The notes beneath the pieces are model-generated. The model was not told where the DNA came from. It did not search any database and was given only the letters and a program-made list of their open reading frames with translations. Shown piece after piece: positions 6,754-58,767 of a stretch of 64,000 bases of DNA (within the stretch, counting starts at the first letter, position 1; each line of letters starts with the position of its first letter). The stretch covers positions 51,427-115,426 of the forward strand of contig JAFUFI010000015.1 in NCBI GenBank assembly GCA_017469945.1. Direction: 5' to 3'. The translations under genes and the position numbers were made by a program. This DNA is from Lachnospiraceae bacterium (lineage in GTDB: Bacteria; Bacillota; Clostridia; Lachnospirales; Lachnospiraceae).

Positions 6754-7923
6754 ATGACAGGTACTATACTTGATTATTTAATTGAATACGGTGATGTACC
6801 TTTTTCGGAGATGCGTTTTACGGAAGTTGACGCGGCAATCCTTTGCAAGTTCTCATACTTTAATTTTGAAAAGTTCGTGCCGGATCTTGATTCGGATATG
6901 CCTTCCGTTTCTTTAAGAAATATTATGCTGATGGAAAATGCGGAGGAGCTTTTGGAAAAGGGAAAGTACAGATCCGTCTCGAAGCAGATGGTCGAACTGA
7001 TGCTGAAAGGAAGAAGATTTCAGGGACTTCGGATAGCTTGCTTTACAAAATGCACCGACAGAGAGAGCCAGACTCAGTTTGCCGCAGTCACGTTCTTTAC
7101 CGGCCCCAGGAGGATGTATGTAGTCTTTAGAGGTACGGATTCATCTCTTATAGGGCTTAAGGAAGATTTCAATCTGCTTTATACGGACCATGCAAAATGT
7201 CATGATTACGCGGTTAATTACTTAATGACCGTAAGCAAAAAGTTCCCTCATAAAATGTATGTCGGAGGACATTCAAAGGGGGGACATCTTGCAGTTTATG
7301 CAAGTATGAATATGCCGCCGGAAATTCAAAACAGAATACACAGGATCTATAGCTGTGACGGGCTGGGACTGAGACCGGGACTGATGCAGGACGGAAAGTT
7401 TAAGGCCATAGAGAATAAGCTATACAAGCTTATACCCCAGTCTTCGCTTATCGGGATGATGCTTGAGGACGACGGCCATTACGAGGTTGTAAGAAGCAGC
7501 GGACTTTCTCTTATACAGCACAATATCTATACCTGGCAGGTGGACGGACGCAGGTTCATCCGGGAAAAGAAACTTGGAAACAATGCCATATTTGTAGAGC
7601 ATACCTTTAATGGCTGGGTTGAGAGCCAGGATGATGAGAACAGAAAGAAATTCATTGACGGGATCTACTCCATTATAGATGCATGCAGTGCGGAAAAGCT
7701 GAGCGATCTTATGAAGGACGGGGGAAAAAAGTTCAACATCATCGTAAACGAGATAAAGGACCTTGACGAGGAAAGCCGTGAGCAGCTTAGAAGCGTATTT
7801 AAGGCATTTACCGTAGTGGCGAGGTTTTATCTTAAAACGGATGTGGGCGGAAATATCAAAAAAACCATTAAACGCGGAGCCGGGAGAGTAAGGCTCCCTA
7901 TGGAAAAACTTAATCAAAAGTAG
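6754..7923 (+). CDS. DUF2974 (Mbeg1-like) alpha/beta hydrolase, putative lipase
   Basis: N-terminal DYL..YGD.PF...F.EVDA.IL, QFAAVTF, VFRGTD, nucleophile elbow GHSKGG. Confidence 0.85.
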   Translation: MTGTILDYLIEYGDVPFSEMRFTEVDAAILCKFSYFNFEKFVPDLDSDMPSVSLRNIMLMENAEELLEKGKYRSVSKQMVELMLKGRRFQGLRIACFTKCTDRESQTQFAAVTFFTGPRRMYVVFRGTDSSLIGLKEDFNLLYTDHAKCHDYAVNYLMTVSKKFPHKMYVGGHSKGGHLAVYASMNMPPEIQNRIHRIYSCDGLGLRPGLMQDGKFKAIENKLYKLIPQSSLIGMMLEDDGHYEVVRSSGLSLIQHNIYTWQVDGRRFIREKKLGNNAIFVEHTFNGWVESQDDENRKKFIDGIYSIIDACSAEKLSDLMKDGGKKFNIIVNEIKDLDEESREQLRSVFKAFTVVARFYLKTDVGGNIKKTIKRGAGRVRLPMEKLNQK

Positions 7924-17233: not shown

Positions 17234-17971
17234 ATGAAAAAAAGATTTGTAGCGATTGCTCTTGCCACAGGACTTATGCTCTGCGGATGCGGCGCATCTT
17301 CCGGCGAAAGCCCTGAGGCTGAAAGTATCGAGGCTCCTTTGGAAGCATCAGATGAGTCTTTAGCCGGTGAGTCTTTAGCCGGTGAGCAAAAGGAAGACGA
17401 AGCTGCTTCTATAACTGAGGATGATAACAATAAAGCCGGAGAAGAGACAGAGCAGAAGGACGATACCGGGTTGCAGGATACACAGGATACACAGGATACA
17501 CAGGATACACAGGATACCCCGGAGGATCAAACGGCCATAAATAACGAAACGACACCTTCCGAGCCCGAAGAGCCTACAGAGGGTGCGCCTTTGGATTTTA
17601 TCTCACGTAACGGATATATCGAAGGGACGGAGATGGAGTCTGCTGATCTTGACAACACTCTTTGGGCAGCATTCGAGACTTATAATATTATTGATTATGA
17701 GTATAATGACTATACATCGGATACAGAAGGGTATTTCAGCAACACATATCTGCAGCTTGGAGATATGGGACAAGGCTCTGTAACCCGTGACGGAAAAACC
17801 GAAAACTTTACATACACATTGAATGAATATCCTGACAGTGCTGTGGGTAAAACGGATTCCGGAGAAGATATTTACATGTATTTCTATACTTTCCATTTTG
17901 GCGAAGAGGATTACGAAACCATTTGTTTCGAAATCGGAGCCTGGGCTATTTACTTTTGGCCTTTTGGGTGA
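17234..17971 (+). CDS. Putative lipoprotein with an acidic low-complexity linker
   Basis: MKKRF, hydrophobic core, LMLCGC lipobox; E/D/T-rich linker; aromatic-rich C-terminal domain. Confidence 0.8.
   Translation: MKKRFVAIALATGLMLCGCGASSGESPEAESIEAPLEASDESLAGESLAGEQKEDEAASITEDDNNKAGEETEQKDDTGLQDTQDTQDTQDTQDTPEDQTAINNETTPSEPEEPTEGAPLDFISRNGYIEGTEMESADLDNTLWAAFETYNIIDYEYNDYTSDTEGYFSNTYLQLGDMGQGSVTRDGKTENFTYTLNEYPDSAVGKTDSGEDIYMYFYTFHFGEEDYETICFEIGAWAIYFWPFG
17474..17518 (+). repeat. In-frame 9-bp tandem repeat (CAGGATACA x5, QDT)
   Basis: Read directly at 17474-17518. A 15-bp repeat GAGTCTTTAGCCGGT (ESLAG) x2 also occurs in the same gene near 17354-17383. Confidence 0.95.
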
Positions 17972-17998: not shown

Positions 17999-18481
17999 AT
18001 GGGCAAAAAGTCAGTCAGAGAAAACAAAAACGAATACCAGTTGGCAAGGGAAAATCTCAATCTTACAAGGGAAGCGGCCAGCGAAATCATGAAATATGTT
18101 TCGGATGACCGTATCGAAAAGATAGAGTCGGAAAAATCGCTGCCCCATCCCGATGAGATTATGCTTATGGCGAAGGCGTACAAGGCACCTCACCTTTGCA
18201 ATTATTTCTGCTCCCATGAATGTCCCATAGGACAGGAAAATGTTCCGGAGCTGGAGTACAAGAGCCTTGCGGAGATCACTCTTGCTATGCTCTCATCCCT
18301 TAACTCAATGGACAAATACAAAAACCGCCTTATAGAGATTACTTCAAACGGAAGAGTTGATGAGGATGAGGTTGAGGATTTTGAGACTATCCGTGAGAAA
18401 TTAGAGCAGATATCCGTTATGACGCAGTCCTTAAAGCTTTGGGTTGATAAAGCAATAGCTGACGGTAAAATGAAATTGTGA
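17999..18481 (+). CDS. XRE-family helix-turn-helix protein with a CII-like C-terminal helical domain
   Basis: YQLARENLNLTREAASE...RIEKIESEKSLPHPDEIMLMAKAY, then LCNYFCSHECPIG. Confidence 0.75.
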   Translation: MGKKSVRENKNEYQLARENLNLTREAASEIMKYVSDDRIEKIESEKSLPHPDEIMLMAKAYKAPHLCNYFCSHECPIGQENVPELEYKSLAEITLAMLSSLNSMDKYKNRLIEITSNGRVDEDEVEDFETIREKLEQISVMTQSLKLWVDKAIADGKMKL

Positions 18482-18485
18482 TAAA

Positions 18486-18528
18486 ACGGCGGAAATTGTA
18501 TGTCTGTATGATTTCCGCCCATTTTTAT
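18486..18528 (+). terminator. Intrinsic terminator
   Basis: GGCGGAAAT...ATTTCCGCC stem followed by ATTTTTATT. Confidence 0.7.
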
Positions 18529-18556
18529 TGACTTTGAATTTGCATGGATATATAAT
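18528..18556 (+). promoter_or_regulatory. Sigma-A promoter of the preQ1/VUT locus
   Basis: TTGACT (18528-18533), 17 bp spacer, TATAAT (18551-18556). Confidence 0.85.
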
Positions 18557-18568
18557 ACTAAAGTTCTG

Positions 18569-18618
18569 CGAGGAGTTCGGCCTCTAAATCCTCCTCGTTA
18601 AATAATAAAACCAAGGAG
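18569..18618 (+). ncRNA. PreQ1 class I riboswitch
   Basis: Stem CGAGGAG/CTCCTCG, loop starting TTC, A-rich tail AAATAATAAAACCAAGGAG running into the RBS. It sits directly upstream of a queuosine-precursor transporter gene. Confidence 0.8.
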
Positions 18619-18625
18619 AAAAACA

Positions 18626-19441
18626 ATGAAATCAAGTATCAAATCGCTGGCTGAGGAGACTAAGATCCTTATGCGCAGCATCCCATCACTCGTCGTAGCG
18701 GCTTATATCGTCGCGCTCGTCACCATGAATCTGCTAGCAAACAAGCTTGTACCTATAAATACAGAATATCTGCTTTTAGATTGCGGATTTTTCGTATCCT
18801 GGGCAGTATTTCTTACAATGGATGTGGTAACAAGGCATTTTGGACCTCGTGCCGCAACTATTCTTTCTGTTGTAGGACTTATCTGCAATCTTTTTGTTGC
18901 GCTTTTACTGTTCTTTTGCGGTAAGTTACCCGGAAGCTGGGGAGAGGCCTATATACCCGGCTTTGAGTCAGTCATCAACACCGCTCTTGATAATACCATA
19001 AGCGGCAACTGGTTTGTCGTATTCGGAAGCAGCCTTGCTTTCCTAAGTTCCGCTGTCGTAAACAATTTCCTGAATTTCTTTATCGGAAGAAAGGTTGAGG
19101 GAAATGTTGTGGGAATGAAGGCCGGATCTTTAGCTTCCACCAAGAAGAAAAACTTCGGAACCTTTGCACTTAGAAGCTATGTTTCTACATTTATCGGCCA
19201 GTTCGTTGATAACCTTGTTTTTGCGCTCGTTGTAAGTCATACGCTTTTCGGGCTTTCACTCTTGCAGTGCATGATCTGTGCCGTAACGGGTGCGGCAGCG
19301 GAGCTTTTGTTCGAGGTTGTGTTCTCACCCATCGGATATAATGTAACTAAGGCTTGGGAGCGCGACGGAGTAGGAAGCGAGTATTTCCGGTTCGTATCTG
19401 AGGCATATTCAAAGAAAAGCGAAGAGCTCAAAGCAGTTTAA
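18626..19441 (+). CDS. VUT (Vut_1/YhhQ, DUF165) family queuosine-precursor transporter
   Basis: MNLLANK, CGFFVSWAVFLTMDVVTRHFGPRAA, RSYVSTFIGQFVDNLVF; multi-TM; preceded by a preQ1 riboswitch. Confidence 0.88.
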   Translation: MKSSIKSLAEETKILMRSIPSLVVAAYIVALVTMNLLANKLVPINTEYLLLDCGFFVSWAVFLTMDVVTRHFGPRAATILSVVGLICNLFVALLLFFCGKLPGSWGEAYIPGFESVINTALDNTISGNWFVVFGSSLAFLSSAVVNNFLNFFIGRKVEGNVVGMKAGSLASTKKKNFGTFALRSYVSTFIGQFVDNLVFALVVSHTLFGLSLLQCMICAVTGAAAELLFEVVFSPIGYNVTKAWERDGVGSEYFRFVSEAYSKKSEELKAV

Positions 19442-19477
19442 AGAACATACGCTTATGGATAAGTGATGTGTAACTAA

Positions 19478-19640
19478 GTGACGGCTGCGCGCTACGCAGC
19501 TATGTATCCGGCACCGCCTCGCGGCTATAGGGTCCTCGTGGCAGCGGTCCTAAGCTCGTACTGCGCATGGCTTGTACTCGCTAAGTACCGGCCTCGGACA
19601 TATTGCCGGATATCATAGCTTGCGCATCACGCAGCCTGAC
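19478..19640 (-). repeat. Structured repeat, copy 1 (resembles the Clostridiales-1 RNA motif family)
   Basis: Reverse complement of 19510-19607 = GGCAATATGTCCGAGGCC...CGAGGACCCTATAGCC-GCGA-GGCGGTGCC, enclosed by its own long outer stem (GGCTGCG...AGCTATG-TATCCGGCA / TGCCGGATA-CATAGCT...CGCAGCC). The family name is from memory and unverified. Confidence 0.7.
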
Positions 19641-19835
19641 TGGGATAGTTCTATTTTATATAATTAATGGCCTGCTCAAGCCGTTATTATAAATGTGCAG
19701 AATGCAGGTTATTAGATAGTTCATCAGTGCCTACAGACATTTAACCAACAATATGACAACACGACAAGAAATGCAAAAACCGATATAAAAACGAATCGGA
19801 AATGCGATTTAGATAGATATATGAGAATTTGGTGG

Positions 19836-19992
19836 TGCGGACGGTGATTGGTGGGTGCGTCTTGGGCAATGTGTCCGAGGCCGGTACTTAGCGAAGGCGA
19901 GCGATAGCGATGCCTGAGCTTAGAACCGCTGCAACGAGGACGTCATAGCCGGGAGGCGGTGCCAAAGATGCACCAAACAATCACCGCCCGCA
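19836..19992 (+). repeat. Structured repeat, copy 2 (inverted relative to copy 1)
   Basis: Core 19865-19963 GGCAATGTGTCCGAGGCC...CGAGGACGTCATAGCC-GGGA-GGCGGTGCC; outer stem TGCGG-ACGGTGATTG...GTGCGTCTTGG / CCAA-AGATGCACC...CAATCACCG-CCCGCA. Confidence 0.75.
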
Positions 19993-20016
19993 ATTACATA
20001 TTTACAGGAGCGTATC

Positions 20017-20667
20017 ATGCACATTTTAGTTACGGGCTCGAGCCGGGGAATCGGCAAAGCAATAGCTGAGAAGTTTCTTAAAGAAGGACATAAGGTATCG
20101 GGATTTGACGTAAATCCCGGAACGATAGATAACGTTTTCTACACACATTACATCGTAGATATTCGCAAAAAGAGCATGTATCCGAAGCTTGATACGGTAG
20201 ACATCCTTATCAATAACGCCGGAGTTCAGGGAGCGGACGATGTTAATGTCAATCTGCTTGGAACGATCGATATTACGGAAGAGTACGGAATACATCCGGA
20301 GATCAAGTCCGTGCTTATGATCGGATCGGCCTGTGTACATACGGGCTCGGAATTCCCCGTGTATGCCGCTAGTAAAGGCGGAGTAGTTACTTACGCTAAA
20401 AATGTAGCTTTAAGGATTGCGCCTTACGGAGCCACATGCAACAGTTTGGACTTCGGTGGCGTTATTACAGAGCTTAACGCACCGGTTATAGATGATTGTG
20501 AGCTTTGGAACAAGATCATGGATCTTACTCCGCTTAAGAGATGGATGAGCGTGGAAGAGACCGCAGATTGGGCATATTTTATGACTGTGACTAACAGATT
20601 CTGTACAGGTCAGAATATCCTTATCGACGGTTTAGAGGCAGGAAACGCAACATTCGTCTGGAAGTAG
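20017..20667 (+). CDS. Short-chain dehydrogenase/reductase (classical SDR)
   Basis: TGSSRGIG, INNAG, catalytic S (IGS) and YAASK, FCTGQNILIDG. Confidence 0.93.
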   Translation: MHILVTGSSRGIGKAIAEKFLKEGHKVSGFDVNPGTIDNVFYTHYIVDIRKKSMYPKLDTVDILINNAGVQGADDVNVNLLGTIDITEEYGIHPEIKSVLMIGSACVHTGSEFPVYAASKGGVVTYAKNVALRIAPYGATCNSLDFGGVITELNAPVIDDCELWNKIMDLTPLKRWMSVEETADWAYFMTVTNRFCTGQNILIDGLEAGNATFVWK

Positions 20668-20716
20668 GAAACTTTTTTAAACAATAAAAACAGGAGCTAT
20701 AAAGCTTTTTGAAACA

Positions 20717-20748
20717 AGAGGAAACTTGCTATGCAGGTTTCCTTTTTT
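20717..20748 (+). terminator. Intrinsic terminator after the SDR gene
   Basis: AGGAAACTTGC-TAT-GCAGGTTTCCT followed by TTTTT. Confidence 0.8.
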
Positions 20749-46733: not shown

Positions 46734-48368
<1,635 letters not shown>

Positions 48369-48381
48369 AACAGGGAATCAT

Positions 48382-48427
48382 AAGAGCCGCTTTCTTCCTG
48401 CTTGCAGGAAAGAAAGCGGCTCTTTTT
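48382..48427 (+). terminator. Intrinsic terminator of groESL
   Basis: AAGAGCCGCTTTCTTCCTGC-TT-GCAGGAAAGAAAGCGGCTCTT followed by TTT. Confidence 0.9.
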
Positions 48428-48436
48428 GATGCCCGC

Positions 48437-48604
48437 ACATGTATAAGCATAAAAGCCAATTGCGTAGCAATGGCGATATGCGCATACATGTAGGATTTCG
48501 AGAGTTGCGAAGCAACGTAGAAATCCGCTGTTTTAGTAAGCAACAGCGATTTGCGAATACTTTTTGGCAGATTGCGAGAGTTGCGAAGCAAATTAAGAAA
48601 CTCT
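48437..48604. repeat. Cluster of irregular hairpins capped by GCGNAGC mini-hairpins (REP-like)
   Basis: ATTGC-GTA-GCAAT; GAGAGTTGC-GAA-GCAA twice (48500, 48577); enclosing stems ACATGTAT/ATACATGT and GGATTTC/GAAATCC. Confidence 0.6.
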
Positions 48605-58615: not shown

Positions 58616-58767
58616 GCGGGAGAGCGTAGTGAGCTGTTCTGAGAGCAATGTGTCCGAGGCCAGCACTTGTTGAGTGCGAGTACTACGAAGCACGAAACTA
58701 GTACTGCTGCTTCGAGGACCCATAGCTGAGAAGCGATGCTCGAAGAACACTCACGAGCTAGGCCCGC
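58616..58767 (+). repeat. Structured repeat, copy 3 (same family as 19478-19640 and 19836-19992)
   Basis: Core AGCAATGTGTCCGAGGCC...CGAGGACCCATAGCT-GAGA-AGCGATGCT; outer stem GCGGG...GTGAG-TGTTC / GAACA-CTCAC...CCCGC. Confidence 0.75.

Follow-up and report, generated by a model that had tools for sequence, protein, structure and literature searches.

A preQ1-I-like leader, a VUT-family transporter and a short-chain dehydrogenase/reductase form a candidate queuosine-precursor salvage operon in a Lachnospiraceae bacterium

Queuosine (Q) is a micronutrient that gut microbes share with their hosts, and the majority of gut Firmicutes depend on salvage to obtain it. The radical-SAM lyase QueL is, to our knowledge, the only known route from queuine to preQ1. 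Here we describe a locus in a 64-kb stretch of DNA from a rumen Lachnospiraceae bacterium (contig JAFUFI010000015.1; hereafter the window) at which a promoter, a preQ1-I-like leader, a membrane transporter of the VUT family and a short-chain dehydrogenase/reductase (SDR) follow one another and are closed by an intrinsic terminator. All of the operon features lie on the + strand:

18528-18556, + strand: sigma-70-type promoter, TTGACT-17-TATAAT, matching the consensus at 11 of 12 positions and placed directly after a terminator at 18488-18519
18566-18622, + strand: putative variant preQ1-I (type-I-like) aptamer with a translational platform, assigned from covariation, signature and contact bases
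18626-19441, + strand: VUT/COG1738 membrane transporter, 271 amino acids, PF02592
19442-20016, + strand: inserted repeat element, 575 nt, with inverted dispersed repeats and an AT-rich centre
20006-20010, + strand: Shine-Dalgarno (SD) sequence of the SDR, AGGAG, 6 nt before the SDR ATG, read from the sequence
20017-20667, + strand: short classical SDR, 216 amino acids, PF13561 and PF00106
20716-20752, + strand: intrinsic terminator closing the operon, a 14-bp stem (20716-20746) plus a U run, z = -3.6

A preliminary description made from the letters of this DNA had named the promoter, the VUT transporter, an SDR with its own ribosome-binding site and a first clear terminator behind the SDR. All four are present at the positions listed, and no + strand terminator was found within the gap between the two genes. 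Transcription is expected to start near 18563-18565, and the promoter is kept in three further loci (L001-L003). Taken as a whole, we favour the reading that the locus is a preQ1-repressed, two-gene operon for salvage of queuosine precursors, and hold it with moderate confidence.

The association of the two genes is the first line of evidence. A VUT-anchored survey, limited to one genome per species, gave 55 loci, mostly from metagenome-assembled genomes (MAGs) of the rumen and gut, and covered Lachnospiraceae, other Clostridia, Oscillospirales, Erysipelotrichaceae, Christensenellales, Bacilli and Coriobacteriia. A full-length SDR orthologue, 42-99% identical, comes directly after VUT in the same orientation at 53 of the 55 loci (53 of 54 that could be tested), and the VUT/SDR junction is mostly a 4-nt ATGA stop/start overlap. 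One of the two exceptions ends 124 nt after VUT and is therefore untestable (L026); the other has an amidase-signature enzyme in place of the SDR (L049). Adjacency holds down to 36-42% protein identity, and VUT plus SDR is the sole module conserved over these loci, with no third conserved gene. The leaders are preQ1-I-like throughout. This is the pattern of adjacency and leaders that the preliminary description had proposed looking for in gene neighbourhoods.

Some loci depart from the two-gene form. In L033 (112-1692), VUT and SDR are joined in frame as a single open reading frame (ORF) of 526 amino acids in which the ATGA overlap is lost, either a real fusion or a MAG sequencing error. L045 (3956-6076) is a three-gene variant with a GDSL/SGNH hydrolase (PF13472) between VUT and SDR. 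In L049 (57-2440), a preQ1-I-like leader (25.3 bits) precedes a VUT gene that is translationally coupled to the amidase-signature enzyme (PF01425, 253 bits), a pairing that suggests import of a different preQ1 or queuine conjugate. The occurrence of an amidase, a GDSL hydrolase and the SDR beside members of one VUT subfamily suggests that the imported molecule needs processing. On the contig of L136 (1-9402), queA-tgt-yajC precede VUT-SDR at a distance of 6 kb, and the presence of queA-tgt indicates that preQ1, not queuine, is the form inserted there; the VUT leader of L136 begins directly after the 3' end of a transfer-messenger RNA (7860-7886). Two sister contigs (L137, L138) have, in place of the queA-tgt side, a run of small ORFs that lack annotation and may be a prophage.

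A second operon places the SDR in another preQ1-controlled setting. In Jingyaoa shaoxingensis (L139-141), in one further locus (L072) and in a species from the Hadza gut (L147-148), an SDR 72% identical to that of the window is the third gene of a different operon. This operon starts with a canonical PreQ1-I riboswitch (RF00522, 49.3 bits, E = 3e-9) plus a terminator hairpin, and its first gene encodes a nucleoside hydrolase of the IU_nuc_hydro type (QueK family, 300 bits). The second gene encodes a 186-amino-acid S-component of an energy-coupling factor (ECF) transporter (CD3073 family, 92 bits, below the cutoff), and the SDR comes last, its start overlapping the preceding stop. In a published summary of Yuan et al. 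2019, the Clostridioides difficile operon runs PreQ1-I / queK-qrtT-queL, in which QueK converts queuosine to queuine and the radical-SAM enzyme QueL converts queuine to preQ1 (PMC11477304). The shared gene order puts the SDR in the position of QueL. A role for the SDR in queuine or queuosine metabolism, as the preliminary description had suggested, thus gains support from its linkage to VUT and from this position, and we consider it likely that the SDR acts in Q-precursor salvage.

The leader is about 60 nt long. Its P1 hairpin pairs CGAGGAG (18569-18575) with CUCCUCG (18591-18597) and encloses the loop UUCGGCCUCUAAAUC; the remaining elements read in order:

18576-18578, + strand: L1, UUC
18579-18580, + strand: GG, candidate 5' side of P2
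18581-18590, + strand: L2, CCUCUAAAUC, nearly invariant, with a putative specificity C at 18590
18598-18610, + strand: A-rich L3, UUAAAUAAUAAAA
18611-18612, + strand: CC, followed by AA, the SD sequence GGAG at 18615-18618 and the VUT ATG at 18626

A scan of the window and 18 loci at the Rfam gathering threshold returned no PreQ1 match, even for canonical-looking leaders. As this threshold is uninformative for short variants, we used bit scores, covariation and signature statistics instead. Against RF00522, the Jingyaoa leader scores 49.3 bits, leaders of a class that we call type B 25-27, type C 15.9 and the window leader 14.5. Across 23 distinct homologous leaders, P1 is 99.4% paired and four of its seven pairs show double-sided changes (CGAGGAG/CUCCUCG, CGAGAAG/CUUCUCG, AGCGAAG/CUUCGCU, CAAGCAG/CUGCUUG and AACGGAG/CUCCGUU); none of 500 shuffles matched the covariation score, and slid registers drop to about 50% paired. 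The loops and tails of the same leaders are nearly invariant, while the VUT proteins encoded behind them are down to about 40% identical. We compared the leader with the ligand contacts of the type-I preQ1-I aptamer structure (PMC8752633) and with published consensus rules (PMC11625349). The type-I contact bases G5, U6, U7, C8, U16, C17 (specificity), C18, the L3 adenines and C31 (beta-site) are present in order, and among the contact bases the single change is U32 to C. The type-I signature pattern occurs once in the window with both strands counted, where dinucleotide shuffles predict 0.005 matches, and in the fetched loci all of its matches lie in front of VUT or QueK-like operons.

Orthologous VUT-SDR operons carry other leaders of the same kind. 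Type B leaders read GACAGUUCG..CCAUCCUGUC..AAAACUAGG plus a terminator and, at 25-27 bits, are the top RF00522 matches in 41 kb, and types C and D show the type-II 'AC' signature. A covariance model built from window-type leaders only gave 11 further matches in 365 kb, every one a VUT leader, and it recovered types B and C. From these comparisons the leader is very probably a riboswitch of the preQ1 family, and we predict a variant preQ1-I aptamer with a translational OFF platform and preQ1 as the probable ligand. The aptamer overlapping the ribosome-binding site that the preliminary description had called is borne out in this form: a pseudoknot-like leader abuts the SD sequence and has the covariation, contact bases and signature, despite the 14.5 bits.

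The transporter matches PF02592 (Vut_1) at 69.3 bits against a cutoff of 27.2. It misses the TIGR00697 'queuosine precursor transporter' equivalog, scoring 28.1 bits over residues 25-98 against a cutoff of 50.95, and the source annotation of its homologues (NCBI) is 'VUT family protein' only. By these profile scores, the window VUT belongs to a subfamily of QPTR-family transporters distinct from the YhhQ equivalog. Escherichia coli YhhQ carries preQ0 and preQ1 (PMC5372724), QPTR of Chlamydia trachomatis carries queuine (PMC11570991), and QPTR/YhhQ genes often sit under preQ1 riboswitches (PMC5372724, PMC11570991).

The SDR matches PF13561 (70 bits) and PF00106 (67 bits) and has the motifs of a classical SDR: TGxxxGIG (G7/G11/G13), NNAG (N66-G69) and the tetrad N79/S104/Y116/K120. 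The tetrad and Asp31, at the end of beta-2, are invariant in 58 riboswitch-linked orthologues that are 43-99% identical. An Asp at this place is the classical marker of NAD(H) preference in SDRs. In the same set, Y42, H44, E112, F113, W176, E181, F213 and W215 are family-specific and invariant or nearly so, and there is no invariant Cys. An AlphaFold2 model has the SDR fold (pLDDT 84; TM about 0.8 to known SDRs). The protein approaches no NCBIfam equivalog and has no characterised close relative, and every source names it only 'SDR family oxidoreductase'. Profile searches gave SDR domains only and no radical-SAM domain with CxxxCxxC; the SDR is thus not a QueL homologue, and our claim is one of functional analogy drawn from operon position. 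The family is compact: of 1.84 billion sequences, 84 representatives match at E <= 1e-30. It reaches Olsenella and other Atopobiaceae as well as Mollicutes, including Ca. Enteromonas.

Two other ideas about this family were tried and set aside. A pterin reductase (PTR1-, FolM- or QDPR-like) with a pterin-importing VUT found no support, as the profile and fold matches of the SDR are to FabG, EntA and generic SDRs and its operons have leaders of the preQ1 type. A search for Rosetta-stone fusions among longer members of the family gave only unannotated N-terminal extensions or assembly chimeras (P0248). Two distant members (P0311, P0354) have N-terminal extensions of roughly 70-110 amino acids with a zinc-ribbon-like CxxC...CPxCG and no Pfam match.

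We infer the ligand of the aptamer variant, the substrate of the transporter and the reaction of the SDR, and the proposed scheme runs as follows. The promoter at 18528-18556 would drive an mRNA whose leader folds as a type-I-like preQ1-I H-type pseudoknot. When preQ1 is sufficient, the ligand would dock the A-rich tail and CC (18611-12) on the hairpin and occlude the SD sequence, which would stop translation of VUT and, in most relatives, of the translationally coupled SDR. The VUT subfamily would import a base of the Q family, most likely queuine, that is not a direct substrate for a TGT of the preQ1 type. The NAD+-preferring SDR would then oxidise the cyclopentenyl side chain at the allylic C-N or the neighbouring hydroxyl, and the resulting imine or alpha-amino-ketone would hydrolyse and free preQ1. 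TGT, QueA and QueG/H would turn preQ1 into Q-tRNA, and preQ1, as end product, would feed back on the riboswitch. The SDR would in this way function like the radical-SAM queuine lyase QueL without kinship to it. That the SDR reaction is queuine to preQ1, an assignment made by analogy, we regard as plausible but somewhat short of an even chance. Only tentatively do we extend it to the full proposal, in which the SDR family, of roughly 217 amino acids, would be an NAD+-dependent 'queuine dehydrogenase' that frees preQ1 by oxidative C-N cleavage and, independently of radical-SAM chemistry, replaces QueL in many gut and rumen Firmicutes, Coriobacteriia and Mollicutes, the VUT protein would be a queuine importer and the leader would represent a fourth preQ1-I subtype, as yet undetected.

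Other reactions would fit the same operons. The SDR could be a non-orthologous QueF, with preQ0 either imported by VUT or the ECF S-component or freed from a nucleoside by the hydrolase, and its nitrile reduced to preQ1. Such an enzyme would be compatible with both operon architectures, a preQ1-making reductase suits end-product control by a preQ1 riboswitch, and YhhQ of E. coli moves preQ0 as well as preQ1 (PMC5372724). Against this, QueF chemistry needs a catalytic Cys, and none is invariant in the 58 orthologues; the invariant Asp31 predicts NAD(H), whereas QueF uses NADPH; and positional analogy points to QueL, after a QueK-like hydrolase. The four-electron reduction of a nitrile by an SDR also has no known precedent. 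On these grounds we consider a QueF-like role quite unlikely.

An accessory role is a further alternative, in which the SDR would, for example, detoxify or recycle a cyclopentenone left over from queuine cleavage or act on epoxy-, glutamyl- or glycosyl-Q, and C-N cleavage would fall to QueL or another enzyme encoded elsewhere. The linkage evidence serves this explanation equally well, the GDSL hydrolase of L045 and the amidase of L049 suggest that conjugates vary, and solitary SDR copies, described below, point to a function for which the transporter is not always required. However, VUT and SDR form a self-contained pair at more than 50 loci, where no other gene is conserved beside them, and the validated operon of C. 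difficile needs no SDR. We judge an accessory role unlikely, and continue to prefer the SDR as the enzyme that regenerates preQ1.

The gap that separates VUT from SDR in the window calls for separate treatment. The preliminary description had called it repeat-filled. Repeats are indeed present; more precisely, a dispersed repeat occurs in two inverted copies that flank an AT-rich centre, and the whole is a recent insertion. The copies are GC-rich, about 100 nt long and 82% identical (19510-19607 and 19865-19963), and lie within longer arms (about 19475-19640 and about 19831-19995) whose inverted-repeat identity is 82-88%. The gap folds as a long hairpin (free energy -255 kcal/mol, z = -11.3) and has no family match in Rfam. 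A third, diverged copy lies 39 kb away at 58645-58739, and in contigs from public RNA sequencing runs the arms continue into unrelated sequence; the repeat is therefore dispersed. The insert occurs only in the window's own lineage, in forms of 602, 556, 430 (no right arm) and 219 nt (no centre), and a relative with 79% VUT identity has a VUT-SDR spacer of 10 nt. By these comparisons, the gap arose through a recent insertion of repeats that varies among strains, and it breaks the translational coupling of VUT and SDR. The public RNA-run contigs are short and mixed-strain, some are of doubtful RNA origin, and none reaches from VUT across the gap into the SDR.

Several observations weigh against the salvage reading. 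The window leader matches RF00522 at 18566-18620 with only 14.5 bits (E = 1.4 in 241 nt), far below the gathering score of 39, and is not called at that threshold. Its candidate P2 pairings, GG/CC and CUCU/GGAG, are essentially invariant and give no covariation signal, and the pseudoknot is accordingly putative. The covariance model from window-type leaders misses the canonical Jingyaoa aptamer and so gives no statistical evidence of direct homology to the canonical form. The AT-rich centre of the insert holds a promoter-like site (CTGACT-17-TATAAT, 19636-19664, 10 of 12 matches); in the window, the insert may supply the SDR with a promoter of its own, which the preliminary description had listed among the findings that would refute it, and the SDR may partly have escaped riboswitch control. 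Close SDR orthologues (about 72% identical) stand alone, with neither riboswitch nor Q gene, in at least four species-level contexts. Finally, Foldseek and PDB sequence searches with the SDR returned generic relatives only (FabG, EntA and uncharacterised SDRs, at most 28% identical) and hence no clue to the substrate.

The points about the leader raise the possibility that it is not a preQ1 sensor and is instead a plain SD-masking hairpin, or an aptamer retuned to another ligand such as queuine. The low RF00522 score would agree with this, as would the enlarged and nearly invariant L2 loop CCUCUAAAU, unlike that of canonical preQ1-I, the tail CC in place of the type-I CUA, and the absence of a covariation signal in P2. 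The low score is accounted for by the 7-bp P1, the 10-nt L2 and the 13-nt L3, and the leader keeps every alpha- and beta-site contact base seen in the solved type-I structure. Moreover, orthologous operons use better-scoring or canonical preQ1-I aptamers, and the constancy of loop and tail in front of proteins about 40% identical favours a ligand pocket over a simple hairpin. A leader that senses something other than preQ1 therefore seems to us improbable.

The solitary orthologues bear on whether the SDR belongs to queuosine metabolism at all. An SDR-anchored search of metagenomes gave 80 loci, highly redundant, with VUT upstream in 14 and absent in 60 that could be tested. Some of the latter are truly solitary: they have their own promoter and no riboswitch, and stand beside MATE, DinB, suf or defence genes. 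In a locus with a solitary SDR (L142), a gene for a TatD-associated radical-SAM protein (388-1047; TIGR04038, 181 bits; TIGR04100, 227 bits) lies 4 kb from the solitary SDR and adjoins genes for a pyridoxamine kinase and a xanthine/uracil permease. The preliminary description had named SDR orthologues without linkage to VUT or preQ1 leaders in other genomes as one of the observations that would count against it. Such linkage is present at 53 of the 55 VUT loci and in the second preQ1-I operon, and several close orthologues are solitary.

The SDR could accordingly be a housekeeping enzyme, unrelated to queuosine, that hitch-hikes behind the transporter. Its annotation and fold are generic, and several gut species have close orthologues that are solitary under their own promoters and without a riboswitch. 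This explanation has to contend with adjacency across phyla at 36-42% identity, with translational coupling and one fusion, and with a second preQ1-controlled operon, independent recruitment to which is very unlikely for an unrelated gene. We regard hitch-hiking as highly improbable, and retain the salvage reading.

The surroundings of the operon in the window are as follows:

17999-18481, + strand: HTH_3 ORF, 160 amino acids, the upstream neighbour of the operon
18488-18519, + strand: intrinsic terminator of the upstream HTH_3 gene, a 14-pair stem then a T run

This strong terminator should shield the operon from upstream read-through. The HTH_3 protein bears a Cys-rich motif, CNYFCSHECPIG, and its gene directly precedes the VUT-SDR operon in L001-L009 and L145-146 as well. 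Before it, at 17234-17971, lies an ORF without a Pfam match whose product is predicted to be lipoprotein-like and contains QDT in tandem repeat, QDTQDTQDTQDT. The operon is followed by feoA-feoA-feoB, and other neighbours include ATP synthase genes, glycosyltransferases, an aldo-keto reductase and a GGDEF protein; none of these has a link to queuosine. A search of the 64 kb for tgt, queA, queK or ECF S-component genes found none. A full-length Clostridiales-1 RNA (RF01699, 113.6 bits) lies at 48365-48536 on the + strand.

It has been noted that QueL is missing from some organisms with QueK, QueA and a preQ1-type TGT, and an undiscovered, non-orthologous replacement for QueL has been raised as a possibility for QueK-positive, QueL-negative bacteria (bioRxiv 10.1101/2025.10.13.681863). 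The SDR family is a specific candidate for this missing enzyme of Q salvage, and one that is small, soluble and has an obvious cofactor. A full-text literature search, with McCown 2014 and Yuan 2019 outside its scope, found no SDR linked to QPTR/YhhQ, preQ1 riboswitches or queuine salvage, in agreement with the preliminary description, which knew of none in the described pathway. The locus also exposes two gaps in annotation: a widespread preQ1-I aptamer variant is missed by the current Rfam model, and a COG1738 subfamily falls outside the 'queuosine precursor transporter' label. Both affect the metabolic reconstruction of Q exchange in microbiomes.

Set beside known systems, the preQ1-controlled Q-salvage operon is a known type, while the SDR enzyme, its pairing with this VUT subfamily and the aptamer variant are undescribed. 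QueF also makes preQ1 with a nicotinamide cofactor, but it does so with a T-fold and a catalytic Cys thioimide, both absent from the SDR. EntA (2,3-dihydro-2,3-dihydroxybenzoate dehydrogenase) and cis-dihydrodiol dehydrogenases have in common with the window protein the classical SDR fold and tetrad; EntA is among the top fold and profile matches, and its oxidation of an allylic diol is analogous to oxidising the cyclopentenediol of queuine. Identity to EntA-type SDRs is 22-28%, the window SDR is shorter by about 30 residues, and what they share is common to the SDR fold in general. QPTR/YhhQ transporters (COG1738, PF02592) belong to the same Pfam family as the window VUT, which differs in failing the TIGR00697 cutoff and in being nearly always co-encoded with an SDR, a pairing undescribed for QPTR.

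The leader shares with the type-I preQ1-I aptamer (Carnobacterium antarcticum, PMC8752633; RF00522) a hairpin followed by UUC, a UC preceding P1's 3' strand, an L3 rich in A, and a conserved C in the tail. In both, the SD sequence lies immediately 3' of the aptamer and control is translational OFF, as predicted for the window; the window differs in a P1 of 7 bp rather than 5, an L2 of 10 nt, an L3 of 13 nt and a tail CC rather than CU(A). The nearest parallel for the operon as a whole is queK-qrtT-queL of C. difficile, which is likewise under a preQ1-I riboswitch and combines a transporter with one or more enzymes that regenerate preQ1. Jingyaoa-type operons share with it the order of a QueK-like hydrolase and an ECF S-component, whereas the window operon has VUT and no hydrolase, and ends in a 216-amino-acid NAD-type SDR where C. 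difficile has the radical-SAM enzyme QueL.

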